Below are positions 4,073-61,544 of a stretch of DNA of 64,000 bases, in pieces. This stretch comes from an uncultured Acidobacteriota bacterium (lineage in GTDB: Bacteria; Acidobacteriota; UBA6911; RPQK01; JAPXNP01), in NCBI GenBank assembly GCA_964524795.1, contig CAZGEH010000003.1:78675-142674 (forward strand), given 5' to 3'. Made by a program: the position numbers and the translations under genes. Under the pieces are notes generated by a model, which did not search any database, was not told the origin of the DNA, and saw only the letters and a list, made by a program, of their open reading frames with translations. Within the stretch, counting starts at the first letter, position 1, and the number at the start of each line of letters is the position of its first letter.

Positions 4073-4077
4073 GCAAC

Positions 4078-11869: not shown

Positions 11870-14800
11870 TCATCGAACCGCCAGGTACCCGAACACGTAG
11901 GCAGTGGGTCCCAGCGTCTGCATCACCGTGAATTCCGTCGTTTCGGGAAACAGGAAGATGTCGAAGTATGCTGACAGTGTCGGCCAGCGATCCACCGTCG
12001 GATACAGGGCCGGTGCCATCAGGTTGATGGCCCAGTGTCCCTTGGCGAAGGTCTCCATATCGAAGGGACCGTAAACCGTGATCCCTTGCGGCGGCTCCTG
12101 GTTGGTGCGGCGCTGGTCCACCACCAGGGGATGGAGGGGCTGCCGGAAGCCGATGCCGGTGGTGTATGAAAGCCCCAGGGGATTGGCGCCGATTCCAGTC
12201 TGGCAGGCGGCCACAATGGTTCTCAGCAGTTCGGGATCGCCTGTCAACCGGTGTGCCCGCGCCAGAGTGACCGCCTGAGGTGCCGAGAGTTTGCCGAAGC
12301 CGACCGGCTCCCAGGGATCCTGCTTGGTCCAGTTGAAGCCGGTCCGTTGTGACTGCTGGACTGACCTGGCCGCCTCCCGGAGGATTGCATTGCGGGCGTT
12401 GTTCTGGACCACCGCATCGACATCGCCGGACTCCAGCAGACAGTAGAGAAAGGCGGCGTCACGCTGGTTGTGGCTGCGCCACACAGCCGGATCGGCTGCA
12501 GGACTCGTGAACTTGGTGGTCTCCAGGAAGATGCGGTGCCAGTTCGGATCACCGGTTAGCCGGTAGAGTTCGAGGGCTGCCAGATTGCGGGCATCACGAA
12601 CCTCGTTGAGGGCATTGGCGACGGCGTCCGGGTCAGCCGGCTGAGCCGGCCGCGACTGCAGCCAGGCCGGATACTCCGACTCCGCCCAGGCAGCAGCGCG
12701 CAGGGCGCTGTCCCGATAGACCTGCGCCAGCGCCGGTCCCACCCGCTCCAGGGCGAGCGAGGCCCTTGCCGCCACCCCCGCATAGATGAAGCTGCTCCAG
12801 ACGTCAGGGGCATAGGCCATCACCGGCAGCGATTCCTGCCAGCTCGTCTCGCCGTAACGGGGATGCTCGGCGGATTCGATACCGCCCCGAATCCCCCCGG
12901 AAGGCGTCTGCATCCGGCGATATACGTCAAGTCCCCAGATGGCCTCATCCAGCAGGTCGGGAACCCCATTGCCCGACTCGGGCAGGCCCAGTTCCCCGTC
13001 TTCGAAGGCGCCGGGGAAGGCGAGGATGAGCTCCAGCAGAAGGCGGGCGGCTTCCAGATGCTGGATTCGCCGGTCCCAGTCCCCGGCGTCGAAGTATCCG
13101 CCCCAGGCCTGGGGAACGGGCTCAGAGGTTTTCCCGGCTACCAAATCACCGAAGTTTCCGTCGCGGTTTCCGTTGGCGTCCAGGCCGTTGCCCGAATCCG
13201 CCAAGGTGGCGGTGGACGCGTACACCACCATCCCGTCGTCGGGATGAAAGGCCCGGGGGCGCTCGAAACGGCTGAACGGAGGCCCGATGGAGATCCCGCT
13301 GCGCTGGTGGTAGAAACCCCTGGCGGAACGCCGGTGCGCACGGCGCCACACTTCCGGGCCCACCTCGAACGGTTGGGAGCAACCGACCCCCTGCAAACAG
13401 GCGCGATACACCCCGGGACGGCTCAGCTCGCTGAAGTCCAGCCGATAGACATCGACCCCACTGTAGTTGCGATTGTAGGGATCCTCCGTCCTGTCGGCGG
13501 CCGCCTTGCCGAGGATCACCGGTCCGGACAGGACCGGCGATCCGTCCTCATCCCGGATCTGGAAAGTCGGACTTCCGGTCAGGCTGAGGCCGCCTCCGTC
13601 ACCCATCCAGACGGCCACGTAGCCCCCCTTGAACGGATCATCCGGCCGGAAACCGACCTGGGAAACCAGGACCGCCTCACTAAGATTTCGGTCCGGATCG
13701 TGGTGGTAGGTGATTTCCGGCAGGAAGGACTCATCGAAGCGGATCCGGTACGTTGCTCCCGCCTTCAACGGACCGGGAAACCGGAAATACAGAGTATGCT
13801 CCAGCGGCCATTCGAAAGACCAGACTCCAGTCTGCACCATGTCCCAGGGTGCGGTCCGCCGATAAACCGCCAGGGGATGCCGGCTGGTGGGGAGCGCGGG
13901 ATCGCCTTGAGACTCGATCAGATAGGTCCGCGGCTCCTTCAGTCGGTTCGCTCCCTCAGGACCGGCAAGCAGGGCGGGGACGCCTTGCAGCCGATCAAAG
14001 GGACAGAGCACGTTCCGCTCCGGTCCCACCAGCGCCCCCACGATCTGGCCTCCTCTCCTCAGCCACACCGATCCATATTCGCCGGAGAGTTCCACCATGT
14101 CTCCCGGCTCGGGCTGGTAAGGGACCTGCCGGGCGCCGATACGTTTACCGGACCGCAAGCTCACCGCCAGCATGTCGGGAGCCACCGCACCCACCCGCAG
14201 GATTTCACGCTGAAACCGTTCCCGGACCTGGGAAGGCAAGGCAGGATGATCGGGGGTCCAGACCCCGAAAACGGGGAATGAGGTGATACCGCCCGTCACC
14301 GCCAACAGACGGTCATCCTCCAGGTTCCACCCCTGAACCAGTTCCACGTCCTGGATGCCGGGTATGGTTGCCCAGACCAGCAGTTCGTCCGCCGCCGGCG
14401 AATAGAGGGTCAGGGCTCCGGACCCGGATTCCGCAATCAACAGCCGGATGGCTGCGGGACAGGAAACTCCGCTCCGGAAGACCGCCTCCAGGGCCACCGG
14501 GCGCAAAAGACCTTCGCGGACGGTTTCCCGCCGGTTAGTGATCCGATCCCAACGGACGAGGCGGCCGGCGGCGGTTTCCACCACGTAAACATGACCCGTA
14601 CAGGGGTCCACCGCCGCCTGGGCAGGCTGAACACCCGGGACCAGCACCTCGCGCCGCCGGTCGGGGTAGGAAAATGTTCCCAGCCCGTGGTTCAGTGCAA
14701 ACGACGCCACCTTGGACAGGAAGGCCGCCTCCGCGATCAGCAGGTTGCCGGTAATGGGGTCGAGAGCCAGCTTTCCCGGGTTGTTCAGTCCCTCCAGCAG

Positions 14801-16788
14801 CACGGCTGACTGGCCATTTCGGGGGTCCAGCCGCAACAGCCGGCCGGCACTGGTCGCCGCCAACAGGTACTCCTTGCCGTCGAGAGCCTGCCAGCTCAAC
14901 AGCCCTCTGAGCTGCTGGCCGGCGATCTGGGCTGCCGGAGAACCCTGCCGGCGCAAGATCCTGGTGTTGCCGCCGGAGAGTTCCGCAAGATACCACTCGC
15001 CCCGAAACTGGGAATGGGCCGCCAGCAAAGGGGTCCCGGGAAGCGTGGACGGACCTGCCACGTCGACCGTGGCCCCGACGGCCTCAACGATGCCACGCCG
15101 GGACCACTCGAGGGTCACCGCAACCGGTGCCAGAGGTTCAGCCGCCGGAGCCCGATACATGCCACCGGCGGTGACAGTTCCCACCTGGGTGTCGCCTCCC
15201 GGCCGGCCGTTGACTTTCCAGACCCAGTCCGTTGCGGCAACCGGCATCGTCGAAACCGTTCCGGTTTGCCCGCGGGTGATCTGGGCGGAGGGGCCGGAGG
15301 ATTCCGCCAGACCCGGCGGCGGGGAGAAGTTGTAAGTCGCACCGGGGGAAAGCCGGATCAGGGTCGGCTCGAGACGTGCGACCTCCGCTCCCCCAGGAGC
15401 GAAGCCTCCAGCCGGCGACTGAGGCGGGATGTTGGCCAGCACGCCACGGTGTGATCCGGTTTGGAGTCGCCCGAACAGCGACGTCATCGCCAGTGGGGTG
15501 TCCGCGACGATCCAGACGATGCCTCCAGCCAGTCCCGCGGTTTCGGGAACGAACTCGGTCAGCAGCCTGCTTTCCCGCTGGCCGGGAAGCAGGGCGCCCC
15601 GGCAGGTGCCGACCTGCGAGCCATCGGATCGAACAGCCAGAAGGGTGTAGTTGGCCACGGCGGAACCGGGGTTGAGCAGGGCGATGCCGGTAAAGTAATC
15701 CAGAGTAGTGGCGATGTGGGAAAAGACGGCAGAACTCTGGGACCTGTGTGCCGCCGCAACGGCAGCAACCATCCCCTGTTCAGGAACCGAATACACCAGC
15801 GTGCCCAGCAGGGTCGGCGAGGCCGATCTCACCCGCAGCCAGCCGGTGCTGAGACCTCCACGGAATCCGAAAGTCTCCTCGAGATCCTCGTACAGGCTTT
15901 CAGATGGACCCACCACCCGGGTCACACGGCTGGTGTGCGCCTTATTCGGTCCGAAAGGAGTCCCGTCCGGCTGGAAGGCTTCCATGATGATTTCCGCAGT
16001 GCCGGTGCCGAGATGGACCAGGTAGAGCTCCGACCGGTAGGGCGGGCCGACAGCCAACTGCGGGAAGAGCAGCTCTGATGCGGCCCCCGTAACCGGCTTG
16101 GCGTTGACCGCCCAAGCGTCGGCACCGGTCTCGACCAGTTGGTAGCCGGCAACCGGAACCTGGGACTTCACCAGTACGTGCCCGGGTTCTCCTGTGGGCG
16201 AGGAGCCCAGGTCGGAGGCGACGGAGACCTGGGAAGAACCCCAGGGCGGGATGATCAGACTGCGCTCGCTGGGGCCACCCCTCGTGACCAGGTTCAGGAG
16301 GACGCCCGCGTGCTCCGGATTGGGATTGACCAGAGTGAGTTTCGCCTCGCCCCTGGCGGGCGGGGGAACCGCCTCAAACACAAGCTCGCGAGCCGGCGCC
16401 GGCGTGACGGCTCCGTCCAGCCAGGTGACATCCTGGTCGAACTGAAGAAAAAACCCGGTGAGGGCTGGAGTCCCGGACTCCGCCGCCACCCAGATGCCGT
16501 TCGAGTCGGACCACCCGCTCCCGAAGAGGGACAATGCGACCTCCGCGACTTGGCTCCCTGGCCGCACCTCGAGCTGGACCGGGTTGGAGATGCGTTCACC
16601 CCTCGGCATCCGTCCGGCGTCGTCGTAGGCCGTGAGCCTGACGGAAAGCGTCTGTCCCCCCGTGTTCGACAGAGCGATTCCGGTATGCGTTCCAGGTCTG
16701 TCCGCCAGCCGCGGGATGATCAAACGGTGCTCCTCCGCTCCGAACGGCAGGAACAGATTCAGACAGAGCAACAGGCAGGTGGATGTCA
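11870..16788 (-). CDS. Giant secreted multi-repeat protein with C-terminal GH9-like (CelD N-terminal Ig-like + (alpha/alpha)6) domain
   Basis: The ORF runs to 16981. The probable start is TTG at 16788-16786, 12 nt after AGGAGG, giving a signal-like MTSTCLLLCLNLFLPFG. About 1,100 aa of beta-rich repeats (Ig/NHL-like segments such as TGHVYVVETAAGRLVRWD) precede a C-terminal region with GH9-like motifs (WGGYFDAGDWDRR, NPLGLSYTTGIG...PLHP). Confidence 0.65.
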
Positions 16789-16832
16789 AGGATCGCAGGT
16801 CCTCCTGATCGCAGGCAAGTGGCGGTACCGGG

Positions 16833-18023
16833 TCACACGTAACCTGACACCGCCGGCCGGTGGCGCGCGCCACGCTCCTGCGCGATCCGCTCCACATAGC
16901 CGCTGGCGCGCAAAGCCGCCAACGGGTCTGCCGGGAGGCCGCGCCGTTGGCGCCAGGCCCGAATCCAAGGGCGGACATCACGCCGGAAAGCCTCCTTGAG
17001 ACACTCTTCCGCGTCCACCAGGCGGCACTCGTTCTGATACTGCACCAGGGCCGCGAAGTCCACGGTCGCCGCCTTCACCCACAGTTCCTGGACCGTGTCC
17101 ACCGTCTGGACCATCGCTTCCAGCTTGCCCTTGAGATTGTGGCTCTGGTCCACCATGAAGGCGATGCAGGGGGTTGAACCGGTTTCCCACTGGTACAGCC
17201 GGATCTCGTAGAAGACGCGGAACATCTGGTAAGGATCGATGGAGCCGACGGTGAGGTCGTCGTCTGCGTAACGCCGGTCATTGAAATGGAAGCCGCCCAG
17301 CATGTTTTCGCTGAGCAGCCAGGCGACGATCTGCTCGATGTTCTGGGTGGGATAGTGGTGACCTGTGTCCACCAGCACGCGAGCCGAAGCCCCGGCCTTG
17401 GAGGCGTGCAACAAGGCCATCCCCCAGTCGGCGATGTCGGTGTGGTAGAAGGCGGGTTCGAAAGGTTTGTATTCCACCAGCATCCGCTCTTCCGGCTGCA
17501 GCATGGCCGCGACTTCCCGCAGGCCTTCCTCGAACCATTGTTTGCGGCGCCGGATGTGCGCGGTTCCCGGGTAGTTGGAGCCGTCGGCAAACCACAGGAC
17601 CAGCTCCCGGCTGCCCACCGCCCGCATCAGGCGGACGCTCTCCCCGATGTGGTCAAGGGCCTTGCGTCGTACCGCCGGGTCAGGGTTACCCAGTGAGCCG
17701 TATTTGTAGTCCTGGTCCTCGAACAGGGTCGGGTTGATGGAGCCGATCCCCAGCCCCAGCCGGCGGGCATGCTCGACAATGGCGGCAGCCCGCTCGATTC
17801 CACCCGGGAAGTCCCAGGCCGCATGGACGGCCACCGTAGGGCAGCAACCCGTCAAACGGTGGACCTCCGCGGCGTCCTGGAGTTTCTCTTCGATGGTGGT
17901 GGCGGCAGCCGGCTGAAGGAATTTTCCGAAACGCGTCCCGGTGTTGGCAAAGCCCCAGGAGGGAAGCTCGATCCGAAGCTGGTCCAGCACCAGGGCCGCC
18001 GTCTGTTGCAGCGAGTGGTCCAT
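16833..18023 (-). CDS. L-rhamnose isomerase, Pseudomonas stutzeri L-RhI type (xylose-isomerase-like TIM barrel)
   Basis: Strong resemblance to P. stutzeri L-RhI, as recalled: PSWGF.NTGTRF, YKYGSLG, GGFHFNDRRYADDDL, MVDQSHN, YRASGY-like C-terminus. Confidence 0.8.
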   Translation of the reverse strand: MDHSLQQTAALVLDQLRIELPSWGFANTGTRFGKFLQPAAATTIEEKLQDAAEVHRLTGCCPTVAVHAAWDFPGGIERAAAIVEHARRLGLGIGSINPTLFEDQDYKYGSLGNPDPAVRRKALDHIGESVRLMRAVGSRELVLWFADGSNYPGTAHIRRRKQWFEEGLREVAAMLQPEERMLVEYKPFEPAFYHTDIADWGMALLHASKAGASARVLVDTGHHYPTQNIEQIVAWLLSENMLGGFHFNDRRYADDDLTVGSIDPYQMFRVFYEIRLYQWETGSTPCIAFMVDQSHNLKGKLEAMVQTVDTVQELWVKAATVDFAALVQYQNECRLVDAEECLKEAFRRDVRPWIRAWRQRRGLPADPLAALRASGYVERIAQERGARHRPAVSGYV

Positions 18024-39720: not shown

Positions 39721-40554
39721 TCAGGCGGAAGTGGAAGGCTGTCCTAGAAGGTCGCGGATGAACTCCTGTTTGGGACTGCGCTGGTGCACTCCTTTGCGCA
39801 CTGCGATCAGTTCCGCTACCACGCTGACCGCAATCTCCTCGGGTGTCTCCGAACCGATGGGGATCCCGATGGGGGCGTAGAGGCTTTCAAACCGTTCCGG
39901 CGGGTGGCCTTTCTCCAGCAGCGATTCCACGATCAGCTTGATCTTCCGCCGGCTTCCCACCAGCCCCACATAGCATGCCCCGGTTTGGACCGCCTGTTCG
40001 GTGGCGATCTGGTCGAAGCGGTGGCCGCGGGTGACAATCAGGAGGTAAGTCGCCGGACCGATCTCCATCCCGTCCAGTGCCTTCTCCATGGGACGGACCA
40101 GAATCCGCTCCGCATCCGGGAATCGCTCGGGGTTGGCGAAAGTCTCGCGGTCGTCGATGACCGTGACCCGGAACCCCACGCTGGCAGCCAGCCGGCAGAT
40201 TGCCTGACCCAGATGCCCGGCACCCAAAATCACCAGCCGGGGGTCGGGAACGATCGGCTCCACGAAAATCTCCACCGTTCCTCCGCAGACGAGGCCCTCG
40301 TTCTCGGCATCCTCTTCGGTAAGTTCGTAACGAACCAGCTGCGCCTTGCCCGAACGGATCACTTGACAGGCCGCCTGCCAGACTTGGGCCTCGACACAGC
40401 CTCCCCCCACCGAGCCGAGAGTCGTTCCGTCCTCACGGATCAGCATCTTGGCGGCGTCCTTGCGCGGCGTGCTCCCCAATCGGCGGACAATGGTGGCCAG
40501 TGCCGCCGACTCGCCCCGCTCCCGGATCCTCACGATCTCCTGGTAAACGTCCAC
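39721..40554 (-). CDS. XdhC/CoxI-family protein (molybdo-enzyme maturation factor-like)
   Basis: N-terminal XdhC/CoxI domain (ALATIV...GSTPRK), then a Rossmann-like domain (VILGAGHLGQAI...LIVTRGH). Confidence 0.7.
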   Translation of the reverse strand: MDVYQEIVRIRERGESAALATIVRRLGSTPRKDAAKMLIREDGTTLGSVGGGCVEAQVWQAACQVIRSGKAQLVRYELTEEDAENEGLVCGGTVEIFVEPIVPDPRLVILGAGHLGQAICRLAASVGFRVTVIDDRETFANPERFPDAERILVRPMEKALDGMEIGPATYLLIVTRGHRFDQIATEQAVQTGACYVGLVGSRRKIKLIVESLLEKGHPPERFESLYAPIGIPIGSETPEEIAVSVVAELIAVRKGVHQRSPKQEFIRDLLGQPSTSA

Positions 40555-40601
40555 CCGCCCATTCTACCTGCGGGTTCGCGGTGCTGCATCCGGGGACGCT
40601 G

Positions 40602-41807
40602 TCATCCCTGGCGTCGCAGCACCGTACACACCGAGGCGCAGATCGGCCCACCGATGTTGAACGTCGCCGCCACCTGCGCATTCTCGACCTGCAGCGGAGG
40701 AGGGGCCTGTCCCAGCAACTGCCAGGCGCACCAGCCGATCATCGCGACGCCGGTGGCCCCGATGGGATGTCCCTTGGCGATCAGGCCGCCGGAAGTGTTG
40801 ATGGCGCAGGGTCCGCCCACTGCCGCCCGTCCTTCGGCCCAATAATGAGCACCCCGGCCGTAGTCGGCCACACCCAGGATTTCGGCTGCCAGCGCCCCCA
40901 TGACCGTGAAACAGTCGTGTACCTCAGCCACCTGCACGTCGGAGGGTCTTACCCCCGCCATCTCGTAAGCCTTGCGCATGGCCCCAATGGCTCCCGCGGG
41001 GCGCAGAACATCCCGGCAGGACCGCCGCAGCGGATCGGTGGCTTGGGCGTATCCCGCAATCCGGACACAATCGTCGGGATGCAGGCCCACCCGGCGCAAA
41101 CCTTCGCGGGTCGCCAGAATCAATGCCGCATAGCCGTCGGAGATCTGGGAACAGTCGTATGTCTTCAGCGGCAGGCCCGGGACGACATACCGGTTGAAGC
41201 CGCCGATTTCCAGAGCCTGCTCCAAAGACAGCTCCACACTGCGCATCTGGGCGTACGGGTTGTGGCGGGCATTGGCGTACTCCTGGACCGCCACGGCGGC
41301 CAGTTCCCGTTCCGATACCCCGTGGGCATCCATGTACTGTTGCATGATCTCGGCGAAGATGTGGGGAAAGACGTAGGTCTTTCCTTCCCGCTCGTCAGGG
41401 TGGGAAAAGCAGCCCAAAGCCTCACCGACCACCTTGCCGTCGGCCTTGCCGGCGGAGTCCCGCATCTTCTCGTAGCCGACCGCCAAGCCCAGCTCTCCCC
41501 ATCCGAGCAGGAGCTTCTGGATCACTGAGAGCACAGCCTGTCCCCCGGACGCACAGGCATTCTCGACCGCTTCGATGGGTTTTCCTTCCAGGCCCGGAAT
41601 CCCTGCCAGCAAACCGGCCAACAGGCCCTGGCGGTTCAGGGTGAAGTGGCAGGTGGCACCCACGGAGGCGACATCCACCGCCGCCGGCGGGATTCCCAGA
41701 TTTCCGCAGACCCCTTCCACCGCCCGCTGGAGGATCTGGGCCACCGAGAGGTCGTACAACTTTCCAAATTCCGACTGGTGATAGGAGGCAATGTAGATGG
41801 GCCGCAT
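40602..41807 (-). CDS. Thiolase-fold protein (acetyl-CoA C-acyltransferase / SCP-x-like)
   Basis: Start MRPIYIASYHQSEFGKL 8 nt after GGAGG. Active-site Cys context VENACASGGQA; C-terminal HDCF...NTSGGLIAKGHPIGATG. Confidence 0.75.
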   Translation of the reverse strand: MRPIYIASYHQSEFGKLYDLSVAQILQRAVEGVCGNLGIPPAAVDVASVGATCHFTLNRQGLLAGLLAGIPGLEGKPIEAVENACASGGQAVLSVIQKLLLGWGELGLAVGYEKMRDSAGKADGKVVGEALGCFSHPDEREGKTYVFPHIFAEIMQQYMDAHGVSERELAAVAVQEYANARHNPYAQMRSVELSLEQALEIGGFNRYVVPGLPLKTYDCSQISDGYAALILATREGLRRVGLHPDDCVRIAGYAQATDPLRRSCRDVLRPAGAIGAMRKAYEMAGVRPSDVQVAEVHDCFTVMGALAAEILGVADYGRGAHYWAEGRAAVGGPCAINTSGGLIAKGHPIGATGVAMIGWCAWQLLGQAPPPLQVENAQVAATFNIGGPICASVCTVLRRQG

Positions 41808-41844
41808 CCCCTGTTCCTCCGCTGGTCCGCCGTACGGCCTCCGG

Positions 41845-42714
41845 TCAGCCGGCTTTGGCGACCGGGCGCCGCGGGTCCGTAATCCATTCGCTCCATGATC
41901 CGGCGTACAGCCTCGGCCTCCCCAATCCAGCGTGTTCGAAGGCCAGCACGTTGAGGGCTCCGGTGACGCCGGAACCACAGTAACAGATCAGCTCCTCGGG
42001 GACGAGGGCACCGCACAGCGCCTCCAGCTCCAGCCTCAGCTCGGCTCTGGGCCGGAAGCAGCCGTCCGGGCCAAAGTTCGCCTGAAACGGGTGGTTGCAC
42101 GCCCCGGGAATGTGGCCGGCGACCGGGTCAATGGGTTCGAACTCTCCACGGAAACGCTCCGGTGCCCGGGCGTCCACCAGACGCGACGAGCAGCCTTTCT
42201 CCACCAGCTCCGCCACCTCCACGACACCGGCAACCATCCCGTCACGAAGCCGGACCTGCAGGTTTCCCCGGGACGAGGGTGCGGACGGCGAGGGAGAACC
42301 AGACTCCACAGGCAGGCCGCGGGCGCACCACACCGGCCAACCTCCGTCCAGCACCGCCACCGCCTCGTGTCCAAGCCATTTCAAAAGCCACCAGAGCCTT
42401 GCCGCCACTGAACCGCCCGCGTCGTCGTAAGCAGCCACTTGAGCAGAATCGGTCACCCCCTGGCGAGTCAGCCGTTGGGCGAGGCCGACGGGATCCGGCA
42501 GAGGATGGCGGCCCGTGACGCCAGGGATGACCGGTGCGGAAAGATCCTCGTCCAGATGGAGGTAGCGGGCGCCAGGAATCCTGGAGCGGCCGTAGTCGCG
42601 TCGTCCCCGGTCGGGATCGTCCAGGGAAAAACGACAGTCGAAAACCCGCCAATGGGGTTCGGCCAGGTGACGGGCCAGCTCTTCCGGCGTGATCAGGGTG
42701 GTGAAGATTTCCAT
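41845..42714 (-). CDS. Rhodanese-domain sulfurtransferase (tandem rhodanese, SseA/thiosulfate sulfurtransferase-like)
   Basis: Two rhodanese domains; catalytic loop CYCGSGVTG in the second. Confidence 0.8.
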   Translation of the reverse strand: MEIFTTLITPEELARHLAEPHWRVFDCRFSLDDPDRGRRDYGRSRIPGARYLHLDEDLSAPVIPGVTGRHPLPDPVGLAQRLTRQGVTDSAQVAAYDDAGGSVAARLWWLLKWLGHEAVAVLDGGWPVWCARGLPVESGSPSPSAPSSRGNLQVRLRDGMVAGVVEVAELVEKGCSSRLVDARAPERFRGEFEPIDPVAGHIPGACNHPFQANFGPDGCFRPRAELRLELEALCGALVPEELICYCGSGVTGALNVLAFEHAGLGRPRLYAGSWSEWITDPRRPVAKAG

Positions 42715-42839: not shown

Positions 42840-43406
42840 GTGGTACATTCGTGGACCATGGCACGGTTCCGACTGCTGCGGTACTGGATCGGCTGGTTGC
42901 TGGGGTTGGCGGCGGCAGCCGGCCCCGGCTGCACTTCCACCCCTCCCGAGGGGACTCCCATCGACCTCGAAGCAATGCGGGAGTTCAAGCCGTTCGAGCT
43001 GCGGACGCTGGGGGGCGAGACCCGACGGCTCGATGACTATCTCGACCGCGTCACGCTGGTGGCTTTCTTCTTCCCGACTTGAGGGACCTGCAATGCGGAG
43101 TTGCCGCATTTGCAGGACATCTACCGGCGGTACCAGGACCGGGGTATGGCCATGGTGGCCATCAACGTGGTTCCCGAGCAGGATCCCCTGGTGCCGGGTT
43201 GGATCGAAGCCGGGGGCTATACCTTCGACGTGCTGGTGGGCGCCAGCACGGAGGAGATCTTTCGGGACTATGGGATGACGGGTGCGCCTTTGACCTTTCT
43301 GCTGGATGCCGACGGCAAGATCCTGGCCCGCTGGGACGGCTACCAGCCGGGTGCCGAGACGGCGGTCGAGGAACGGATCCAGGCCGCTCTGGCCGCGGGC
43401 GGGTAA
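42840..43406 (+). CDS. TlpA/ResA-like thioredoxin-fold lipoprotein with in-frame UGA at the first redox position (probable selenoprotein, U-G-T-C motif)
   Basis: ORFs 42840..43082 and 43101..43406 are in the same frame and are separated only by TGA (43080-43082). The read-through product …RVTLVAFFFPT-U-GTCNAELPHLQDIYRRYQDRGMAMVAINV...APLTFLLDADGKILARW… aligns with TlpA/ResA (…FWASWCGPCRAE…GFVVLGVNVD…IPTTFLIDRDGKIV…). Signal peptide with GPGC lipobox-like cysteine. A SECIS-like hairpin follows immediately (listed separately below). Confidence 0.65.
43087..43116 (+). promoter_or_regulatory. SECIS-like hairpin 4 nt 3' of the in-frame UGA
   Basis: CCUGCAAUGCGG-AGUUG-CCGCAUUUGCAGG: a 12-bp stem with a single bulged U and a GU-containing apical loop about 20 nt from the UGA. 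This matches the geometry of bacterial SECIS elements such as fdhF. Confidence 0.55.
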
Positions 43407-43519: not shown

Positions 43520-45586
43520 ATGATGGCAGCAGGCATGGCCCGATCCCGGAACGGCGGTTGGCGAAACCCGGTCCCGTTTCTTTTCGCCGGCTTAATCTGG
43601 GTGCTCCAGCCGTTGGCTGCCGTCCCGTCCGAAGGGGAACTTTCCCTTTCCGCTCTGGACCGCCACCCGAAGATCTTCAGCCCCAGAGTACAGGGCGAGT
43701 CGTGGACATGGTGGCTGCCGGCAGGGTTCGACCGGCTGGTCCTGCCTGTGTCCGGCGGCGTGCTGGTGGAGTCTTCCGATGCCGAAATGATTGCGTGGGC
43801 CCGGCGGGGATCCCCCTGGACCCTGAACCAGCTCCCCGCTGCAGGAGCCTCATACCGGGGGCAGATGGCGGTGGTGATCGTCCCCTGGCCCCATTACGCC
43901 GAACTGGTGGTGGGCGAACGGCTCGGCATCCGGTTTGTCTTCCCCCCCGGGAGAGAAAGCACGACCCCATCAGAGATCGTGGCGGCGTTGGTGGAAGACG
44001 ACCTGCTGGCGCCGGCCCGGGTCTTCCGCCAATGGCGCCGCTCGCCAACCGGCGAAGGCGGCATCCCGGCCCCCCGGCCGCTGTCCCGGAAAGCCGAAGA
44101 GCGGCCTGCCGTAGGGCGGCTTTTCGGAGCCGCGCACTTCTACCTGTGGGGGCCGATGCTTTTCAGCCGCCACGACGTACGACGGGGTGGTTGGGCAGCC
44201 TGGGCTCGGATCCTGGCCGGCGCTCCGGAGGGGTCGGCGCCCGCCCGATTGTGGCGGGAACTGGGAGCTGACGCCCGGGCGGCATTCGAGAAGCTGGCCG
44301 AAGGGAGCCACGAGACAGGATCGCTCACCGCCCGGGCCGCTGGCGGCGTCGATCGAGCGCTACGGGATCCTCGCTGGCTGCAGCAGCCGGCGGAAACTAC
44401 TCCCGCCGCCGTGATCCACCGAAACCGGGAGGAACTGGAGCAACTGTTCGCCCCATTTCTTGAACCGCCCGCCACCTGGGGGGACGGCCCTTCCAGGACG
44501 ATGATCGATGCGCTTTCGGCCGCCGGGATCCGTCGTGCCGTTCTGCTGTTGAGCGAACTCCACGGGGCTTCGCCGCGCCCTGAGCTGGCCGCCTACGCTG
44601 CCGCCGCCGGCTATCTAATGGGTCCTTACGATTCCTACCACTCGGTTCACGATCCGGACGCCCCACCCGATGAGACTTGGGAAACGGCCCAGTTCGACCG
44701 GGAGGCTTACCTGCAGGGACGCATCCTGGACCCCGAGGGTCGGGGCCGGCCCGGTTTCCGGGGGCGGGGCTTCCATTTCTCGCCGATTGCGGCCTGGCCC
44801 TGGTTTCTGGACCGTGTCGGCCGGTTGGCGGCGCAAATCCCTTACAACGCCTGGTTTGTGGACTGTGATGCCACCGGAGAACTGTTCGACGACTACCATC
44901 CCGACCATCCGGCAACACGTGTGGACGATCTCGCCGCCCGGCGCCGCCGGTTGGAGTGGCTGGGCCGGGAGCGCGGCCTGGCGGTGGGAAGCGAGGAAGC
45001 GTCGGTCCTGGTGTCGGATGTTGTGGATTTCGGACAAGGTGTCCAGACCCCGTATCTGGGGCATCTGGATCCCGTCCTGTGGGATCCGGAGAGCCCCCAT
45101 TTCCTGGGCCGTTACTGGCCACCCGAGAGTCCTGCCCGGTTCTTCGGTGAGGTGCCCGTGGCACCCTCCCTGCAGCGACCGTATTTCGACCCGCGGGTCC
45201 GGGTGCCACTGCTGCGGGCGGCCTTCGGGGATGAGGTGGTGATGAGCCACCACTGGGAAGGTGACAACTTCAAATTCCGTGATGTGGCTGAAATCCGTGA
45301 GCTGATGGAGATCCTCCACATGACGGCGCCGCTTTACCATCTGAACCGGGACACCTGGCCGCGCCGCCGGCAGCGGATCCTGCGCCATCTGGCAGTCTGG
45401 GCCCCGCTGCACGAGAAGCTGGCGACCGCCGCCCTGACCCGGTTCGAGTGGCTGACACCCGACCGTCTTGTGCAGCGCACAACCTTCGAATCGGCGGAGG
45501 GCTCTTTCCGCATCACGGTCAACCTCGACGCCGTCGAACGGGAGGGGATTCCCCCCCGCTCGGTGCGGGCGGAGGGCGGAGGGTAG
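43520..45586 (+). CDS. Hypothetical secreted protein (about 688 aa; possible glycoside-hydrolase-like TIM barrel, unassigned)
   Basis: Start MMAAGMARSRNGGWRNPVPFLFAGLIWVLQPLAA (signal/anchor). No motif I can assign with confidence. The upstream in-frame ORF extension from 43079 overlaps the selenoprotein gene and is rejected. Confidence 0.45.
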   Translation: MMAAGMARSRNGGWRNPVPFLFAGLIWVLQPLAAVPSEGELSLSALDRHPKIFSPRVQGESWTWWLPAGFDRLVLPVSGGVLVESSDAEMIAWARRGSPWTLNQLPAAGASYRGQMAVVIVPWPHYAELVVGERLGIRFVFPPGRESTTPSEIVAALVEDDLLAPARVFRQWRRSPTGEGGIPAPRPLSRKAEERPAVGRLFGAAHFYLWGPMLFSRHDVRRGGWAAWARILAGAPEGSAPARLWRELGADARAAFEKLAEGSHETGSLTARAAGGVDRALRDPRWLQQPAETTPAAVIHRNREELEQLFAPFLEPPATWGDGPSRTMIDALSAAGIRRAVLLLSELHGASPRPELAAYAAAAGYLMGPYDSYHSVHDPDAPPDETWETAQFDREAYLQGRILDPEGRGRPGFRGRGFHFSPIAAWPWFLDRVGRLAAQIPYNAWFVDCDATGELFDDYHPDHPATRVDDLAARRRRLEWLGRERGLAVGSEEASVLVSDVVDFGQGVQTPYLGHLDPVLWDPESPHFLGRYWPPESPARFFGEVPVAPSLQRPYFDPRVRVPLLRAAFGDEVVMSHHWEGDNFKFRDVAEIRELMEILHMTAPLYHLNRDTWPRRRQRILRHLAVWAPLHEKLATAALTRFEWLTPDRLVQRTTFESAEGSFRITVNLDAVEREGIPPRSVRAEGGG

Positions 45587-47322: not shown

Positions 47323-49804
47323 ATGGCGGCGTTACCGCGAGGGTGCCGAGGTTGGGTGGTCCTGGCAGGGTCCGTTCTGGGTCTGGCCGTGGGGCCGTCC
47401 TGCGGAGGAGGGGGAGCAGGGGAACCGGCGGCGGTCCGCCTGGTTGACGTGTTTCCGTCCGCCACCGTCGAGGGAACTCCGGTGGATGTAACAGAACCCG
47501 ATCCCCTCGACTGGTGGAAGTTTGCCGAACCTCCGCCGAATACGATCGCCGCGGAGAGCCGTGCCACCTGGGGTTGGAAAGCATACGACGCCGTCTCCGG
47601 CCTGAAGCTCCGAGACGGACGGCTCACCGGTCGTACCAGCGGAGCCCTGCCGGTCCTGGCGGCCTCCCGCTTCACCAGCCTGGACGAGAGCGATCTGCTG
47701 CACGCGGTAGAGATCCGCATGCGGGTCAGTGCCGGCACCACCGTGACCATGGCAGCCTGGGGCGAAGCCGAACTCAAGACCCCCGAGCTGATCGGAATGC
47801 TCCGCGGAGCCCCGTTCCGCCTCCAGAGCCCGATCCTGCCGGGCGACGAGTTCCACACCTACACCCTGCAGCCCCCAATAGCCCAACCGCTCGCCCAGAT
47901 GAAGCACCTGATCGTCGTGCCCACCGACGCCGCCGGTGCGGATTTCGAGATCGACTCGATCCGGGTCATCTCCCGCCGGGAGCATCTGGCCAGAATCCCC
48001 TCGGGAGTCGGTTGGCAGGGCCTGTCCGAGATCTACCGGGAGACGGTCGTCGCCCGTTCCCCCGAGGTGATTCACCTGCCGCTGGAAGTTCCTCATGAGG
48101 CCTGGCTCGAACTCCATGTGGGAACCATCGAGCACGACCCGGTTACCTTCAGGGTGGGGGTCTCCGCCGGCGGTGAGGAGACTCCGCTGCTGGTGCGAAC
48201 GGTCACGGTCGCGCACCGGTGGGAGACGGTTCCCCTTGATCTTGCCGCCTATGGAGGCCGGAACGTGACCTTGAACCTGGGACTGGCAGCGGACGACCCC
48301 GGCAAGGTCGGCTTCTGGGGTGGAGTCACTTTGCGTCGGCGCGCCCCCGCGAGCCCGGTTGCCACTGACCGGAAGGCCGTATCCGTCTTGGGTGAAGCCG
48401 CCGGCCGGCCGCCTCAGGGTGTGATCCTGGTCGTGGCCGACACACTGCGCCGGGATCATCTGAATTTCCATGGCTACAGCCGCGAAACCGCCCCCTTCCT
48501 GGCGCAGCTTGCCGCTTCCGGGACGCTGTTCGAGGACAATATCGCACAGGCCACGTGGACTAAAGTCTCTGTCCCCTCCATGTTGACCTCCCTCTACCCG
48601 ACATCGAATCGCATCCACGACATTCCGGACCGACTCTCGGCGCAGGCCACCACCCTGGCAGAGATCTTCCGAGAAGCGGGATACGCGACCGTTGCCTATT
48701 CCTCGGTGCCCTTCACCGGCAAACTGACCAACCTGCATCAGGGATTCGAAGAGCTGCACGAGGTGACTTCGGTGCGCGCCGGGGAATCGCGCGAAAGCAA
48801 GACGGCCCGGGAGTATGTGGACCGCCTGACCCGCTGGCTCGAACTGCACGGCCGGGGACCGTTCTTTGTCTTTCTTCACGTCTTTGACCCCCACGATCCG
48901 TACGAACCCTTCCAGCCATACAACTCGCTTTGGGCCGATCTTTCCCGCAAGCCGGAACACGAACAGCAGCTCGAGACGGTTCGCAAGTTCATTGAAGACC
49001 CGTTGCTCAAGCGTTTCGGAATGCCCAGCCGCGAGGAATTCAGGGCGGCCGGCGTCGACGGGGACGCTTTCGTCGCTTACGACAAGGACTGGTACGACGG
49101 CTCGATCCGGGGAATGGACCGCGAAATTGCGCGGCTGGTGGAGCGACTGGGACAACTGGGCCTAAAACACCGTACGCTGCTGGTCTTTACCAGCGACCAT
49201 GGCGAGGAGTTTCTTGAACACGGTCGGACCTTCCACGGGCAGAATCTGTACGGAGAGCTGACCAACGTTCCCCTGTTTTTCCACTGGGAGGGTGTCGTTC
49301 CCGCCAACCTGCAGATCCAGAAAACCGTGCAGAACGTCGACATCATGCCGACGGTGCTGGCGCTGAGCCATTTGCCTGTCCCATCCGGGATTGCCGGACA
49401 GGACCTGCTGCCCCTGATGGCCTCGAAACAGCCAGGCGGCTCGTCGGCATCTCTCTCGGCGTCAGCCGCGGAACTCCGGCCGGCGATCTCCGAACGGCTG
49501 GAAACCCGGGCGCTTGCGGGGCCTCCGCCGCGGGGAACCGCCTCGGTGGCGCTCGTGCTGGACGGCTGGAAATTGATACACAACTACCAGCGTGTGGAGG
49601 GGCAACCGGAGTACGAGCTATACCGGCACCGCGAGGACCCGCTCAATTTCAACAATGTCGCCGCGGACAATCCCGAGGTAGTCTCCCGACTGGCCTCCGC
49701 GCTGGAAAAGTGGCGGGAGGCGGCCCTGGCGGCCCAGCTTCCCGAGGCGGACTCCACGGAAGGCCTCAGCCGCGAAGAACTGGAGCGCCTCAGAAGCCTG
49801 GGCT

Positions 49805-49815
<11 letters not shown>
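47323..49815 (+). CDS. Sulfatase-like hydrolase/transferase (alkaline-phosphatase superfamily) with about 340-aa N-terminal domain of unknown function; lipoprotein
   Basis: Start MAALPRGCRGWVVLAGSVLGLAVGPSCGG (lipobox). The C-terminal half carries the sulfatase fold (VILVVADTLRRDHLNFHGY...FVFLHVFDPHDPY...FTSDHGE), but the formylglycine motif C/S-x-P-x-R is replaced by T-W-T-K-V-S-V-P-S-M. Confidence 0.65.
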
Positions 49816-51939
<2,124 letters not shown>

Positions 51940-51943
<4 letters not shown>

Positions 51944-53904
51944 AAAGGATCGCTCTGCTGGTGTTGCTGGGTGGGGTGGCGGCGATGGCGGCTCTGAGCC
52001 TGGAATCCCCGCTGTCGGCACCCAGAGTGATTGTGCTGGGGATCGATGGCATGGACCCGCGGCTGCTGCAGCGGTTCATCGATGGGGGAGACTTGCCGCA
52101 TTTCAAGGAGCTGGCGGCAAGAGGCGGCTTCACGCCGCTGCAGACGACGATGCCGCCGCTGAGTCCGGTGGCGTGGTCCACGTTCATCACGGGTACCCTC
52201 CCCCAAAGCCACGGAGTGTTCGATTTTCTGCACCGGGATCCCGTGCGGCTACTGCCGGAATCCGCCATGGCCAGAACCACCCCGCCCGGCTGGACGCTCT
52301 CTCTGGGTTCATGGGTGATCCCGCTGGAAGCCGGCAAGATCGAACAGCTCCGCCAGGGCCGGGCTTTCTGGCAGTACCTCTCGGAGCGCAAGATCCCGGC
52401 CACCATATTCCGGATGCCGGTGAACTTTCCACCCGTGGAGGCGGGACATGCCTTGTCCGGAATGGGAACGCCGGACCTGCTGGGAACTTCCGGCACGTTT
52501 ACGTTCTATACCAGCGGCGCCGTGCCGGAGCATGAGGTTTCAGGCGGGCGGATCGCCCCGGTGAAGGTCGAGAGTATGCAGGCGGTCATGAAGCTGGAGG
52601 GCCCCGCGAACACTTTCCGGCTGCTGCCGTCACCGCAGGGGAAAGCGGAGCATCCGCTTCTTGTGGTCGAGCTGTCGGCGGATCTGGACCCGGAACTTCC
52701 GGCGGTGCGGCTGCAGGTTCAGGGCCAGGAGCTGGTCCTCCAGGAAGGGGAGTGGAGCGACTGGGTCCCCCTGGAGTTCGAGGCCATACCCTACCTGGTT
52801 ACCGTGCATTCGGCCTGCCGCTTCCACCTGCAGCAGGTGCGTCCGGAGTTCCGGCTCTACGTGAGTCCCCTGCAGATCAGCCCTGCATCGCCTGCCATGC
52901 CCATCACCTATCCCGCGGACTGGGCGGGCGACCTTCACCAGCATCTGGGGCTCTTCTATACCCAGGAGTTGGCGGAGGAGACCAAAGGGTTTTCGTCCGG
53001 GATCCTTTCGGGACGCGAGTTCTGGGAGCAGTCCCAGTTCGTGTATCAGGAGCAGCGGAGGATGTTGGACAGCGCCCTGGAGGATTTCAAGGACGGCTTC
53101 CTTTTCTTCTACTTCTCCAGCGTCGATCAGGGTTGCCACATGTTGTGGCGGTACTCCGACCCGGACCATCCGGCGTACGTGGAAGATCCCCCGCTGAGTG
53201 CGGGTATTCGGACCCTGTACCGGGAGATGGACGAGGCCCTGGGCAGGATCCTGGCCGTGGTCGATGATGATACAACCCTGGTGGTGATGTCGGACCACGG
53301 CTTTGCCCCGTTCTACTGGGAAGTCAACCTGAATTCGTGGCTGCTGGACCGGGGGTACGTCAGGCTGGAGGATCCCACCCGGCGGGACGGGTTCACCGCT
53401 TTCGCCAACGTGGACTGGAGCGGTACCCGGGCCTACGCGGTCGGTCTGAACGGACTCTATGTCAATTTGCGGGGACGGGAAGGGAAGGGGATCGTCTCTC
53501 AGGGCAGGGAGTACGAGGCGATCCTGGATCGGATCGAACAGGACCTGCTGGCCATGGTGGACCCGCGTAACGGGAATCGCCCGGTCTCCTATGTGTTGCG
53601 GGGCGGTGAAGCCGCCGGCGCCGCCGGCCGCCGGGGCCCGGACCTCATTGTGGGCTACGCTTATGGTTACCGCAGCTCCTGGAAAAGTCCGCTGGGCGAG
53701 TTTCCGCTCACCATCTTCCAGGACAACCTTGATCCCTGGAGCGGAGACCACAGCATGGATTACCGCCAGGTGCCGGGAGTCCTGCTGAGCAACCGCCGCA
53801 TTACCCTGCCGGAACCGGCGCTTTACGACCTGACGGTGGCGGTGCTGGACGAGTACGGTATCGCCCGACCGGAGGGAATGCTCGGACAGGACTGCCTGGA
53901 CTAA
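51940..53904 (+). CDS. Alkaline-phosphatase-superfamily protein, paralogue of the preceding gene
   Basis: Signal peptide; VIVLGIDGMDPRL…MPPLSPVAWSTFITGTLPQSHGVFDF; VVMSDHGF; SGDHSMD. 4-nt overlap with the upstream gene. Confidence 0.6.
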
Positions 53905-58300: not shown

Positions 58301-58973
58301 ACGGTGCAGTGGACCCATCAGTTCGCTTTCAAAGCATCACAGCATCACCCTGAGATTGCGCGGGCGGTTCCTGCTTCACCGTACCGCCGGTCATCCAGCA
58401 AACCGCCAACCGTTTTTTCGTCGCTGCCAGGGTGAAGACCGCCCGGCGGAATCTTGGGAGCTCGGGTGCCCTCTCGATGATCCTGAGCCCTGCCGGGGCG
58501 GCTGACGCCGCTTTAACCTGGGCTCTCAGTGGTTTTCGCCCCTCCGGGGATCTTGGCCGAACCCCACGCCTTTCGTTGATCGTGAAGCAGCCCACCTGAA
58601 ACTTTAAAGCCCTGCCGACGGCGGACTTCACGGACCACGCCTGTATTCATCGTCTTAAGGTACCTCCAAATGGGGCGTGACCAACTCCTGACTGCCAATC
58701 TCCAATTCCCGGTTCGCCCCGGCTGACGTCGTAGTGAGTCCCTTGTTTTTTCCTGGAAGTTTCTTTCAAATAGCGGTGCCTCCGCCGGAGTCGAGACTGC
58801 TGTTTTACGCTCTGGATCGGCGGCGGAAGCATGGGGGGAGGCGCGAGCCGGCGGCGGCGACCTGTGGGAAGCGGTTGCGTGCTTGCCGGCTTCGACGGGC
58901 GTCTCCCATCCGAGGTCTGCGCCCGGTCCCGCGCCGCAGACGCAGCAATTGCCAAGGACGGAGGAGGTACGTG

Positions 58974-61544
58974 ATGTTTGAACGGACCCGCCACACACGG
59001 ATATCCCGATTCCTTTGCCCGGTTTTGGTCTTCTGGCCGGCCGCCCTGTTGAGTACGAGGGTCTTGCCGGCGGCCCCGGTCCCTCTTCAGCTCAACGAGC
59101 TCGAGTATTTCGAGAAGCCCGGCCTCAATGTTCTGGTCTTCAGTAACCAGTACAACGGCATGTTCTTCGACGAGAAGACGGCCGGGATTGAGCTGATTCA
59201 CCACGGCGTGAGAACGGCTACGGGAGGTGCGGTCCGCGTGCGGCATACGCCCGAGCAGTGGGATCAGATTCCCGAGGTGAAGGAGCGCAGGGTCGATCGG
59301 GAGAGCAACCGGATCGAAGTGGTGCTCCGCTATGCGGACTTCGAATTCGAGCCGCGCCTCGTGGTCGAACCCGATGAGGAGGGCTTTCGGATCGCCGTAT
59401 GGCTGGATCGTCCCCTACCCGAACGCCTGGTCGGCCGGGCCGGCCTGAATCTGGAGTTCCTCCCGGCCACCTATTTCGAGAAGACTTACGTAATGGACAG
59501 CACACCGGGGATCTTGCCGCTCTATCCCGAAGGTCCGGTGGAGATGCGCCTGGCCGCTGCACTGATTCCCCAGTTTGCTGGCCACAACACGTTCGACGAT
59601 CGGGGGCGCGGCGAGTTTCCGGAGCCGCTGCCCGTGGCCGCGGGCCGGCGCTTAATTCTGGCGCCGGAGGATCCCGAGCGGCGGGTGGACATACATTCGA
59701 ATGGCGGGGACTTGCTGCTGTTTGACGGGCGCAACGTGGCGCAAAACGGCTGGTTCGTCGTGCGGACCTTGCTTCCGGCTGAATCCAACGGGAAGGTGGT
59801 GGAATGGTCGGTCCGGCCCCACACGATTCCAGACTGGAAGCGCCCGCCGAATATTGCGTTCTCCCAGGTCGGTTATCACCCTCAACAGAAGAAGGTGGCC
59901 GTCATTGAACTCGACAAGAACGACACGCCGCTGGATAGCGCCGTGCTGTTGGAGATCGCTCCCAGCGGTGAACGCGTGGAAGCGTTTCGCGCCGCGCTGC
60001 AATCCTGGGGCCGGTACCTGCGCTACAACTACGCGATCTTCGACTTCAGCGAGCTGCGTAAATCGGGGACTTACTGCCTACGTTACGGCGACGTGGAATC
60101 GGGCGCCTTCCCGATCCACGACCGGGTCTATTCCGGGATCTGGCATCCGACGCTGGATGTCTTCTTCCCGGTGCAGATGGACCACATGTTCGTCAACGAA
60201 GCGTACCGGGTGTGGCACGGAGCAGCCCACCTGGACGACGCGCGGCAGGCGCCCGTCAACCACCAGCACTTCGACGGCTACCGGATGGGCCCGTCGACGG
60301 AGACGCCATACGAGCCGGGCGAGCACATCCCGGGACTGGCCGTGGGCGGGTGGTTCGACGCCGGGGATTTTGACATCCAGACGCCCTCCCATTGCGCGAC
60401 GGTGCATTCGTTGGCCGAGACGTGGCGGTTGTTTCGGCCGGAGCGGGATCAGACCCTGATCGATCAGGACCGCCGCTTCGTCGAGATTCGCCATCCCGAC
60501 GGCAAGCCCGACATCCTCCAGCAGATCGAGCACGGAGTCCTGCAGCTGGTGGCTCAGCATCGCGTCTTCGGGAGGGCGGTCACCGGCATCGTGGATCCTC
60601 TCCTGCACCAGTACCATCATCTGGGAGACGCCGTAACCCAGACCGACGGCAAGATCTACGACCCCGGCCTGAAACCCTACGAGGTGCAGGGGGATCGCAG
60701 TGGAACTCCCGATGACCGCTGGGTCTTCACCAATCGATCCGCGGCCGTGAACTACTTTTCGATCGCCGCCTTGGCGGCGGCAGCCGAGGCTTTGCGGGGC
60801 TACAACGATCCGCTGGCGGCCGAGTGCCTCGAACGCGCCCGGGCGGCTTGGCAGGCCGAACTTGAACAGGCCGAAGCGTCAGCGCCGGCCTCCGGGTGGG
60901 AGGCTGCGATGCGCCAGGGGGCGGAGCTGTCGGCGGCCCTGGAGCTGTTCCGCGTCACCGGCGAAAAGGCTTACGGTGACCGTTTCCAGGAGCTGCTCTG
61001 GCCCGCGCTGGAGCGCAGTCTTGGTCGCACGCTCGCTACAGGCGTCCGGGCTGTGCCGTTCTTCGACGCCGCATTCCGGGAGCGGCTGAAGCCCTACGTG
61101 GAAAGATACCGGGAGGAGATGGCCAACACCGAACGGGAGAATCCCTTCGGCGTTCCTATCACTCGGGGAGGTTGGGCGGGAAACTCAGCCGTCGTGGGCT
61201 TCTCGATGACCGCTTACTATCTTCATCGGGAGTTTCCGGAGGTGATCGATGCGGAGCCGGTTCTCCGGGGGCTGAACTATCTGTTCGGCTGCCACCCGGC
61301 TACGAATACTTCGTTCGTCTCGGGAGTCGGGGGCAGGTCGAAAAACATCGCCTACGGCAACAACCGAGCTGACTTCAGCTTCATCGCCGGAGGTGTCGTG
61401 CCGGGAGTGTTGATTCTCAAACCGGATTTCCCCGAGAACAAGGACGACTGGCCATTCTTGTGGGGGCAAAACGAGTACACGATAGGCATGAGCGCTCAGT
61501 ACCTGTTGCTGGCGAACGCGGTGAACAGCCTGCTCCAGCGGTGA
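58974..61544 (+). CDS. GH9-like glycoside hydrolase with long N-terminal extension (CelD N-terminal Ig-like domain + (alpha/alpha)6 catalytic-type domain)
   Basis: ATG 6 nt after GGAGGAGG; signal peptide MFERTRHTRISRFLCPVLVFWPAALLS. NIAFSQVGYHPQQKKVAVIEL is a CelD_N-like Ig domain. GGWFDAGDFD has the DAGD catalytic pair; the C-terminal GQNEYTIGMSAQY has the NE..DYN-like acid. The upstream in-frame ORF extension from 58734 is rejected. Confidence 0.65.
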   Translation: MFERTRHTRISRFLCPVLVFWPAALLSTRVLPAAPVPLQLNELEYFEKPGLNVLVFSNQYNGMFFDEKTAGIELIHHGVRTATGGAVRVRHTPEQWDQIPEVKERRVDRESNRIEVVLRYADFEFEPRLVVEPDEEGFRIAVWLDRPLPERLVGRAGLNLEFLPATYFEKTYVMDSTPGILPLYPEGPVEMRLAAALIPQFAGHNTFDDRGRGEFPEPLPVAAGRRLILAPEDPERRVDIHSNGGDLLLFDGRNVAQNGWFVVRTLLPAESNGKVVEWSVRPHTIPDWKRPPNIAFSQVGYHPQQKKVAVIELDKNDTPLDSAVLLEIAPSGERVEAFRAALQSWGRYLRYNYAIFDFSELRKSGTYCLRYGDVESGAFPIHDRVYSGIWHPTLDVFFPVQMDHMFVNEAYRVWHGAAHLDDARQAPVNHQHFDGYRMGPSTETPYEPGEHIPGLAVGGWFDAGDFDIQTPSHCATVHSLAETWRLFRPERDQTLIDQDRRFVEIRHPDGKPDILQQIEHGVLQLVAQHRVFGRAVTGIVDPLLHQYHHLGDAVTQTDGKIYDPGLKPYEVQGDRSGTPDDRWVFTNRSAAVNYFSIAALAAAAEALRGYNDPLAAECLERARAAWQAELEQAEASAPASGWEAAMRQGAELSAALELFRVTGEKAYGDRFQELLWPALERSLGRTLATGVRAVPFFDAAFRERLKPYVERYREEMANTERENPFGVPITRGGWAGNSAVVGFSMTAYYLHREFPEVIDAEPVLRGLNYLFGCHPATNTSFVSGVGGRSKNIAYGNNRADFSFIAGGVVPGVLILKPDFPENKDDWPFLWGQNEYTIGMSAQYLLLANAVNSLLQR

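Follow-up and report, generated by a model that had tools for sequence, protein, structure and literature searches.

Does an in-frame UGA codon within a thioredoxin-like gene end translation, or is it decoded as selenocysteine (Sec)? The question is posed by a locus on the + strand of a 64,000-nucleotide stretch of the Acidobacteriota contig CAZGEH010000003.1 (this whole stretch is called the window), where gene callers report two open reading frames (ORFs) on either side of a TGA. Judging from the sequence and its homologues, the two called ORFs very probably form one gene (42858..43406) in which the UGA at codon 75 is decoded as Sec, with a hairpin of the selenocysteine insertion sequence (SECIS) type downstream of it.

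The reading frame and its predicted product

The sole break in the + strand frame from 42840 to 43406 is the TGA at 43080-43082, which translates with the flanks VAFFFPT*GTCNAELPHLQ. GC content at third codon positions (GC3) in the shared frame is 0.82 on the 5' side of the TGA and 0.84 on the 3' side (window GC 64.5%), and the read-through gene contains no additional stops or frameshifts. The translation ends at a true stop, TAA, at 43404..43406 (+). The first-pass annotation had proposed that two ORFs share one frame and are interrupted by the TGA alone, and both the translation and the matching GC3 bear this out. It had also described a product of 188 amino acids; the single read-through protein stands, whereas its length probably does not. 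The start is likelier to be ATG 42858 (MARFR...) than GTG 42840, because ATG 42858 is kept in the closest orthologue (locus L008) and yields a typical signal peptide. The complete gene on the + strand, 42858..43406, would then comprise 182 codons plus the stop and encode a TlpA/ResA-like protein of 182 amino acids with the redox motif U75-G-T-C78. Its UGA (43080..43082, +) would be read as Sec (residue 75) in place of the N-terminal nucleophilic Cys of a CxxC motif.

Five assemblies made independently, each from its own sample (three JGI metagenomes and two SRA runs), agree base for base over this region, which rules out a sequencing error as the origin of the TGA. In all five assemblies the gene callers split the gene, giving ORFs of 74 amino acids and of 86 or 98 amino acids.

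For the comparison with protein families, the read-through product was scored with a Cys substituted at the UGA. The Pfam domains AhpC-TSA (PF00578; 60 bits, cutoff 26; 2.9e-16) and Redoxin (53 bits, cutoff 26.6; 4.4e-14) both match residues 42-164 and span the UGA. The top PDB matches are structures of ResA (E 1e-12 to 1e-9; 4nmu, E 1e-12), and DsbE-type structures match as well. Alignments with the ResA and DsbE structures pair FFFPT-[U]-GTC with FWGTW-C-KPC and thereby place the UGA on the first Cys of the W-C-x-x-C motif. The first-pass annotation had named the product TlpA/ResA-like and had put the UGA at the N-terminal Cys of the CxxC motif; the domain match across the TGA and the ResA/DsbE structures agree with the former, and the same column holding the catalytic Cys in ResA structures agrees with the latter. 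These matches place the predicted protein in the thioredoxin-fold AhpC-TSA/Redoxin (TlpA-like) superfamily. It is not an orthologue of ResA, DsbE/CcmG, or TlpA, because its NCBIfam scores lie far under the respective cutoffs (63 versus 170 for ResA, NF002854; 38.9 versus 123 for DsbE/CcmG, TIGR00385; 28 versus 230 for TlpA, NF047696). The N-terminally extended relatives described below score similarly on these models. Membership in the ResA-like WAxxUGC selenoprotein family (NF041054) was likewise rejected, at 19 bits versus 300 and with a UxxC motif (U-G-T-C) in the window protein.

The N terminus of the predicted protein consists of a basic region, followed by a hydrophobic region and a Cys, and reads as a signal peptide with a lipobox-like end (MARFRLLRYWIGWLLGLAAAAGPG-C25; 42858..42932, +). 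The Cys that closes the hydrophobic segment is kept in L008 (AAVAAAC), in locus L010 (LIGAGC), and in locus L095 (LGLAAC). When read by eye against the pattern [LVI][ASTVI][GAS]-C, the lipobox of the window protein (AGPG-C) is non-canonical, whereas that of L095 (LAA-C) is canonical. The product is probably an exported lipoprotein that is lipid-anchored outside the cytoplasm.

The UGA codon and its hairpin in other lineages

Among the fetched loci in which the motif was found, the column under the window TGA holds TGC in 46 cases, TGT in 21, and TGA in three. The first-pass annotation had suggested aligning homologues at this column, and this alignment gives a Cys codon (TGC or TGT) in 67 homologues. 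The Cys homologues share an invariant FFFPTCxxCN motif; the close ones are 40-52% identical and come from soil metagenomes and from metagenome-assembled genomes (MAGs) of Acidobacteriota/Vicinamibacterales. One Cys-form homologue, P0142 (188 amino acids; FCFPTCSPCNAELPHFQ), retains the NAELPH peptide that is otherwise specific to the Sec forms, and it may represent a recent Sec-to-Cys conversion, or the reverse.

The three TGA loci of this first set are L008/L009 and L010. The protein encoded by L008/L009 is 85% identical to the window protein, and the left side of the locus is syntenic with the window (rhodanese, thiolase, and XdhC genes). L010 is 56% identical, has 60% GC, and lies in an unrelated genomic context. 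When the window gene is compared with L008 and L010, the ratio of nonsynonymous to synonymous substitution rates (dN/dS) lies at 0.07-0.2 on the 5' side of the TGA as well as on its 3' side, with synonymous sites half to fully saturated (proportion of synonymous differences, pS, 0.5-0.7). The low dN/dS on either side argues that both halves are translated and under selection.

When the entire read-through sequence served as the protein query, all matches were Cys forms. Further Sec forms were recovered by searching with the C-terminal part and then with a profile of the resulting fragments. The profile search found 26 clusters of "proteins" of 77-127 amino acids, all of which start just after the redox motif. 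DNA was fetched for seven of these clusters, and in all seven the fragment is the downstream half of a TGA-split gene. Around the TGA, the translations read FNFFFPT*GRCNAELLHMQ (L092-94), VNFFFPG*TVCEAEFPHLE (L095), VNFFFPG*TTCAAEFPHLE (L096/97; GCA_041578355.1 and GCA_041568635.1), VSFFFPS*PTCRAEFPHLQ (L098; GCA_975959865.1), VNFFFPG*PTCDAEFPHLQ (L099; GCA_041630155.1), and VTFFFPT*RVCNAEFPQLQ (L100). With L008/L009 and L010, the TGA thus occupies the catalytic column in nine lineages, the window and eight others, which range from ~85% down to ~35% amino acid identity and stem from unrelated samples and assemblies. The first-pass annotation had considered that orthologues might end at this position and be followed by an independent ORF. 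Instead, the TGA is kept in the eight further lineages, and in L008 and L010, the two orthologues tested, the sequence before and after it is under purifying selection.

Directly downstream of the UGA, within the coding sequence, lies a SECIS-like hairpin (43087..43116, +). It has 12 bp, carries a bulged U (43110), and starts 4 nucleotides after the UGA. The 5' arm (43087-43098, CCUGCAAUGCGG) and the 3' arm (43104-43116, CCGCAU[U]UGCAGG) enclose the apical loop AGUUG (43099-43103), which begins 16 nucleotides after the UGA and is separated from the bulge by 6 bp. For the isolated hairpin the folding energy amounts to -18 kcal/mol, and for 43077-43130 to -20 kcal/mol (z = -2.5 versus shuffles). 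The fold that the first-pass annotation had described and proposed for checking, with 12 bp, a bulged U, and an AGUUG loop, is therefore both correct and stable. The published model of the bacterial SECIS (bSECIS) allows a loop of 3-9 nucleotides, an upper stem of 4-16 bp, a spacing of 16-37 nucleotides between UGA and loop, and a minimum free energy (MFE) of at most -7.5 kcal/mol, and it expects one of the first two loop bases to be a G, with a G or U usually coming next (PMC13188914). The window hairpin lies within all of these limits (5-nucleotide loop, G at position 2 followed by U, 16 nucleotides, -18 to -20 kcal/mol). A 40-nucleotide downstream fold at least as stable is found after 21 of the 1517 TGA trinucleotides in the window (1.4%).

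The hairpin recurs in the other Sec lineages. An AGUU[G/U/C] loop starts exactly 16 nucleotides after the UGA in all nine, and the apical stem GCGG/CCGC, which together with the loop forms the conserved core GCGG-AGUUG-CCGC (43095-43107, +) of the window hairpin, is invariant in eight of them. The exception is L092, with GCAG/CUGC. In this lineage GCG has changed synonymously to GCA, and a change of CCG to CUG compensates for it at the cost of a Pro-to-Leu substitution; one apical pair thereby turns from GC to AU. Among the window, L008, and L010, no stretch of the gene stays fully identical for longer than the codons TGC AAT GCG GAG TTG CCG CAT. In the remainder of the gene, only 27% of the amino-acid-invariant codons are nucleotide-identical, and a run of seven such codons has a P of ~1e-4. 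When eight lineages are compared, 89.8% of cells are paired, versus 26-59% with the partners slid, and three stem pairs show changes on both sides, the apical GC to AU among them. Over the same stretch, Cys homologues fold worse (mean -10.3, standard deviation 2.8) than the first three Sec forms (-20, -19.2, and -14.4). By these comparisons the hairpin is conserved as a structure, with modest covariation.

Other TGAs in the window are also followed by hairpins. The most stable fold after any of them is a perfect 13-bp hairpin at ~13511-13550 on the - strand (GGAUCGCCGGUCC…GGACCGGUGAUCC, ~-27 kcal/mol), which lies within a 1735-amino acid ORF with a GH9 domain (11870-17074, -); the adjacent TGA is out of frame. 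Further hairpins with an AGUU[G/U] loop after a TGA were matched at window position 61693 and at position 6017 of locus L089, both out of frame.

Alternatives to selenocysteine decoding

Several observations weigh against Sec decoding and have to be set against the evidence above. Neither selA, selB, selD, nor a tRNA-Sec was found in the window and ~10 kb beyond each end (~84 kb). ARAGORN detected no tRNA or tRNA-Sec in the window or in the flanking and related loci, and Pfam searches of ~30 window ORFs, of 31.8-52.7 kb, and of the ~10 kb beyond each end revealed no SelA, SelB, or SelD domains. The first-pass annotation had already stated that the window holds no selenium-utilisation genes, and this proved correct. 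An AIRS/AIRS_C match does occur beside Formyl_trans_N in an L095-type locus of another organism; judged by the adjoining gene, it looks like PurM. A second selenoprotein candidate was not found within the ~84 kb either, and a scan for further in-frame TGAs with coding signal on both sides yielded ordinary adjacent genes only. In favour of Sec decoding, selenoproteins have been documented in some Acidobacteriota (PMC1794560).

The hairpin, too, has to be judged with care. A crude test of bSECIS geometry is passed by 17% of the 1517 window TGAs in this DNA of 64.5% GC, and for this reason the hairpin is by itself only moderately unusual. In GC-rich DNA it is weak evidence, and it is the conservation that carries weight. 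The first-pass annotation had called both the position of the TGA and the hairpin unlikely by chance; with nine lineages this holds for the position, but only moderately for the hairpin taken alone. The covariation is modest, and 37-60 of 500 shuffles also reach three double-changed pairs, a control that is only moderate because most of the stem never varies. The stem is mostly invariant, and its sequence also encodes the conserved peptide AE[LF]PH. Rfam gave no match, either for the window at gathering thresholds or for 43040-43180 up to an E of 10, although Rfam contains no general bSECIS model that would lead one to expect a match.

If the UGA were simply leaky, or subject to programmed read-through stimulated by the hairpin, then near-cognate insertion of Trp, Cys, or Arg would yield the full-length protein without any Sec machinery. 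Such read-through would accord with the lack of Sec genes in the ~84 kb, and a conserved hairpin after a stop codon could in principle promote it. We nevertheless consider it improbable, since a UGA on the catalytic Cys column in nine lineages is the signature of a Sec/Cys pair, and the hairpin fits the bSECIS rules for spacing and for the loop G. Moreover, a single mutation would turn the UGA into a Cys codon, by which Cys could be obtained far more efficiently. Bacterial read-through driven by such a hairpin is not known for thioredoxin-fold genes. A pseudogene, in which a TGC or TGT codon of a Cys-type TlpA-like gene has mutated to the nonsense codon TGA, would need a single nucleotide change, and annotation pipelines indeed call two fragments. 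Against this stand the retention of the TGA in nine diverged lineages, which cannot be contaminant copies of one sequence because their identities are 35-85%, the dN/dS of 0.07-0.2 on both sides at near-saturated synonymous divergence in a gene free of other stops and frameshifts, and the fact that the hairpin core is the most conserved part of the gene. Loss of function is thus very unlikely.

The two ORFs could also be translated separately, into a 74-amino acid N-terminal lipopeptide and an independently initiated C-terminal fragment of ~100 amino acids. In-frame TTG and ATG codons do follow the TGA (43101, 43110, and 43146), and gene callers choose such starts. However, this would halve the thioredoxin fold and its CxxC centre and leave the downstream fragment with no signal peptide. 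The candidate starts also vary by lineage (M or L at ELPHLQ, MQ..., MVAIN...) and are therefore regarded as gene-calling artefacts, and TTG 43101 is part of the hairpin loop and follows GGAG immediately, without a spacer. We give this arrangement hardly any credence. A sequencing or assembly error, or a genetic code in which TGA is reassigned (code 4 or 25), would explain a bare in-frame TGA but nothing more, and its probability is negligible: the five independent assemblies are identical, and a reassigned code is excluded because TGA ends 25 of the 34 long coding-like ORFs of the window and is read through in none of the other genes.

Decoding of the UGA as Sec accordingly remains the preferred reading, and the following route can be envisaged for it. 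When the ribosome arrives at the UGA, the apical stem-loop would recruit SelB with Sec-tRNA(Sec), and U75 would be inserted. The protein would then be exported and probably lipid-anchored. By analogy with TlpA, ResA, and CcmG, the selenolate of U75 would attack a substrate disulfide or an oxidised Cys outside the cytoplasm, C78 would resolve the mixed selenenylsulfide (Se-S) intermediate, and the Se-S bond would be re-reduced by a CcdA/DsbD-type reductant in the membrane, whose gene would lie elsewhere. Genes for cytochrome-c maturation, Sco, or CcdA were not found near the selenoprotein gene. We infer, in this scheme, the insertion of Sec, the presence of SelA, SelB, SelC, and SelD, the lipoprotein status, the physiological substrate and reductant, and, by the same analogy, the redox roles of U75 and C78.

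Gene context and comparison with known selenoproteins

Whereas the window encodes a short protein, the Sec-containing TlpA-like domain forms the C-terminal part of a protein of 340-490 amino acids in most other lineages. In these long forms (L092, 2828-4303; L095, 3861-5234; L096, 2290-3306; L098, 1861-3303; L099, 1326-2303; L100, 852-2339), the signal/lipobox is followed by an N-terminal extension of 200-380 residues, which is helical and TPR-like, with faint matches to Pfam TPR models only. In L095, a 334-amino acid Pyr_redox_2 protein of the thioredoxin-reductase type is encoded directly downstream of the Sec gene on the same strand (5484-6488). The same gene order is found on contigs of 3.4 Mb, 3.2 Mb, and 349 kb; the Pyr_redox_2 gene is absent from the window. 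The Pyr_redox_2 protein of L095 could be a redox partner.

In the window, genes for a two-domain rhodanese, a thiolase, and an XdhC-family maturation factor (39721-42714, -) are divergent from the selenoprotein gene. The rhodanese resembles 3-mercaptopyruvate sulfurtransferases but scores under the NCBIfam cutoff. This block is syntenic in L008, on the left side only, but not in L010, and the neighbours of the Cys homologues are unrelated. Genes for the degradation of polysaccharides and esters are abundant in the window (11870-17074, -; 58734-61544, +; 43520-45586, +; 47449-53904, +) and comprise two very large GH9/CelD_N proteins, a GH129 protein, a sulfatase, and three Phosphodiest-family enzymes. 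This gene content points to a glycan-degrading lifestyle. Some 1.7-4.4 kb to the left of the window start (L089, 2981-5678) lies a cluster of the restriction-modification type with a DNA cytosine methylase, a Vsr mismatch endonuclease, and an EcoRII-C domain protein. In L094, S-adenosylmethionine synthetase appears as two ORFs ~100 nucleotides apart (3197-3943 with the N and M domains; 4049-4378 with the C domain). This split may be an assembly frameshift, and some ERZ assemblies may hold errors; the TGA of the TlpA-like gene is reproduced in three ERZ assemblies.

The window gene is almost certainly a genuine, misannotated selenoprotein gene of an already known selenoprotein type. Its recognition corrects the annotation, as every public assembly checked splits the gene into two "hypothetical" ORFs, and it makes the source organism, probably represented by an Acidobacteriota MAG, a likely user of Sec. 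The conceptual gain is small, as thioredoxin-fold selenoproteins of the UxxC type that have Cys homologues were already known in the mid-2000s. Novelty may lie in the FFFP[TGS]-U-xx-C clade, with its TPR fusions and its rigid SECIS: this subfamily is not covered by any NCBIfam model, and public records annotate its members as two hypothetical fragments. We see about an even chance that the window gene is the founding example of a distinct, unnamed subfamily of TlpA-like selenoproteins, which would be defined by FFFP[TGS]-U-x-x-C-x-A-E-[LF]-[PL]-H, occur in Acidobacteriota-type and other uncultured lineages, comprise short and TPR-fused forms, and carry an unusually rigid SECIS whose GCGG-AGUUN-CCGC core keeps a spacing of 16 nucleotides. 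The SECIS signature of the clade, UGA-N16-AGUUN with a GCGG/CCGC stem, could seed a hidden Markov model or covariance model for the subfamily, including the TPR fusions.

Among described selenoproteins, the closest class is that of the "Prx-like thiol:disulfide oxidoreductases" (PF00578, UxxC/UxxU; e.g. WP_010940744.1), next to which other UxxC-type families, such as the "thiol:disulfide interchange protein" (PF13098), and the UGC-type TlpA have been predicted (PMC1794560, PMC9312934, PMC13188914). By the domain and motif rule of these reviews the window gene belongs to the Prx-like class. As in that class, AhpC-TSA is the best-matching domain, Sec is the first residue of a UxxC motif, Cys homologues exist, and the SECIS lies directly downstream within the coding sequence. 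In contrast to the Prx-like proteins, the window clade has the motif FFFP[TGS]-U-x-x-C-x-A-E-[LF]-[PL]-H with no Trp before the active site and a lipoprotein-type signal, and many of its members possess the TPR-like N-terminal extension of 200-380 residues.

The hairpin resembles the bSECIS consensus (bSECISearch; the type of E. coli fdhF and fdnG) in being a stem-loop within the ORF right after the UGA, with a small loop that has a G and then a U near its 5' side, a bulged stem U, and an MFE below -7.5. It differs in that GCGG-AGUUN-CCGC is specific to the window clade and in that the spacing is invariant at 16 nucleotides, the lower limit of the 16-37 range. The first and last loop bases of the window hairpin, A and G, cannot pair, whereas L095, L096, L098, and L100, four of the nine lineages, form an A-U pair at these positions. 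With the WAxxUGC TlpA/ResA-like selenoprotein (NF041054; cd02966), the window protein shares the TlpA/ResA-like thioredoxin fold and a Sec in the redox motif, although in the U-G-C of the former Sec and Cys are closer together by one residue. The Cys-type proteins ResA, TlpA, and CcmG (DsbE) correspond to the window protein in fold, in the position of the CxxC motif, and in extracytoplasmic targeting, and differ from it in that the window protein would carry Sec instead of the nucleophilic Cys.

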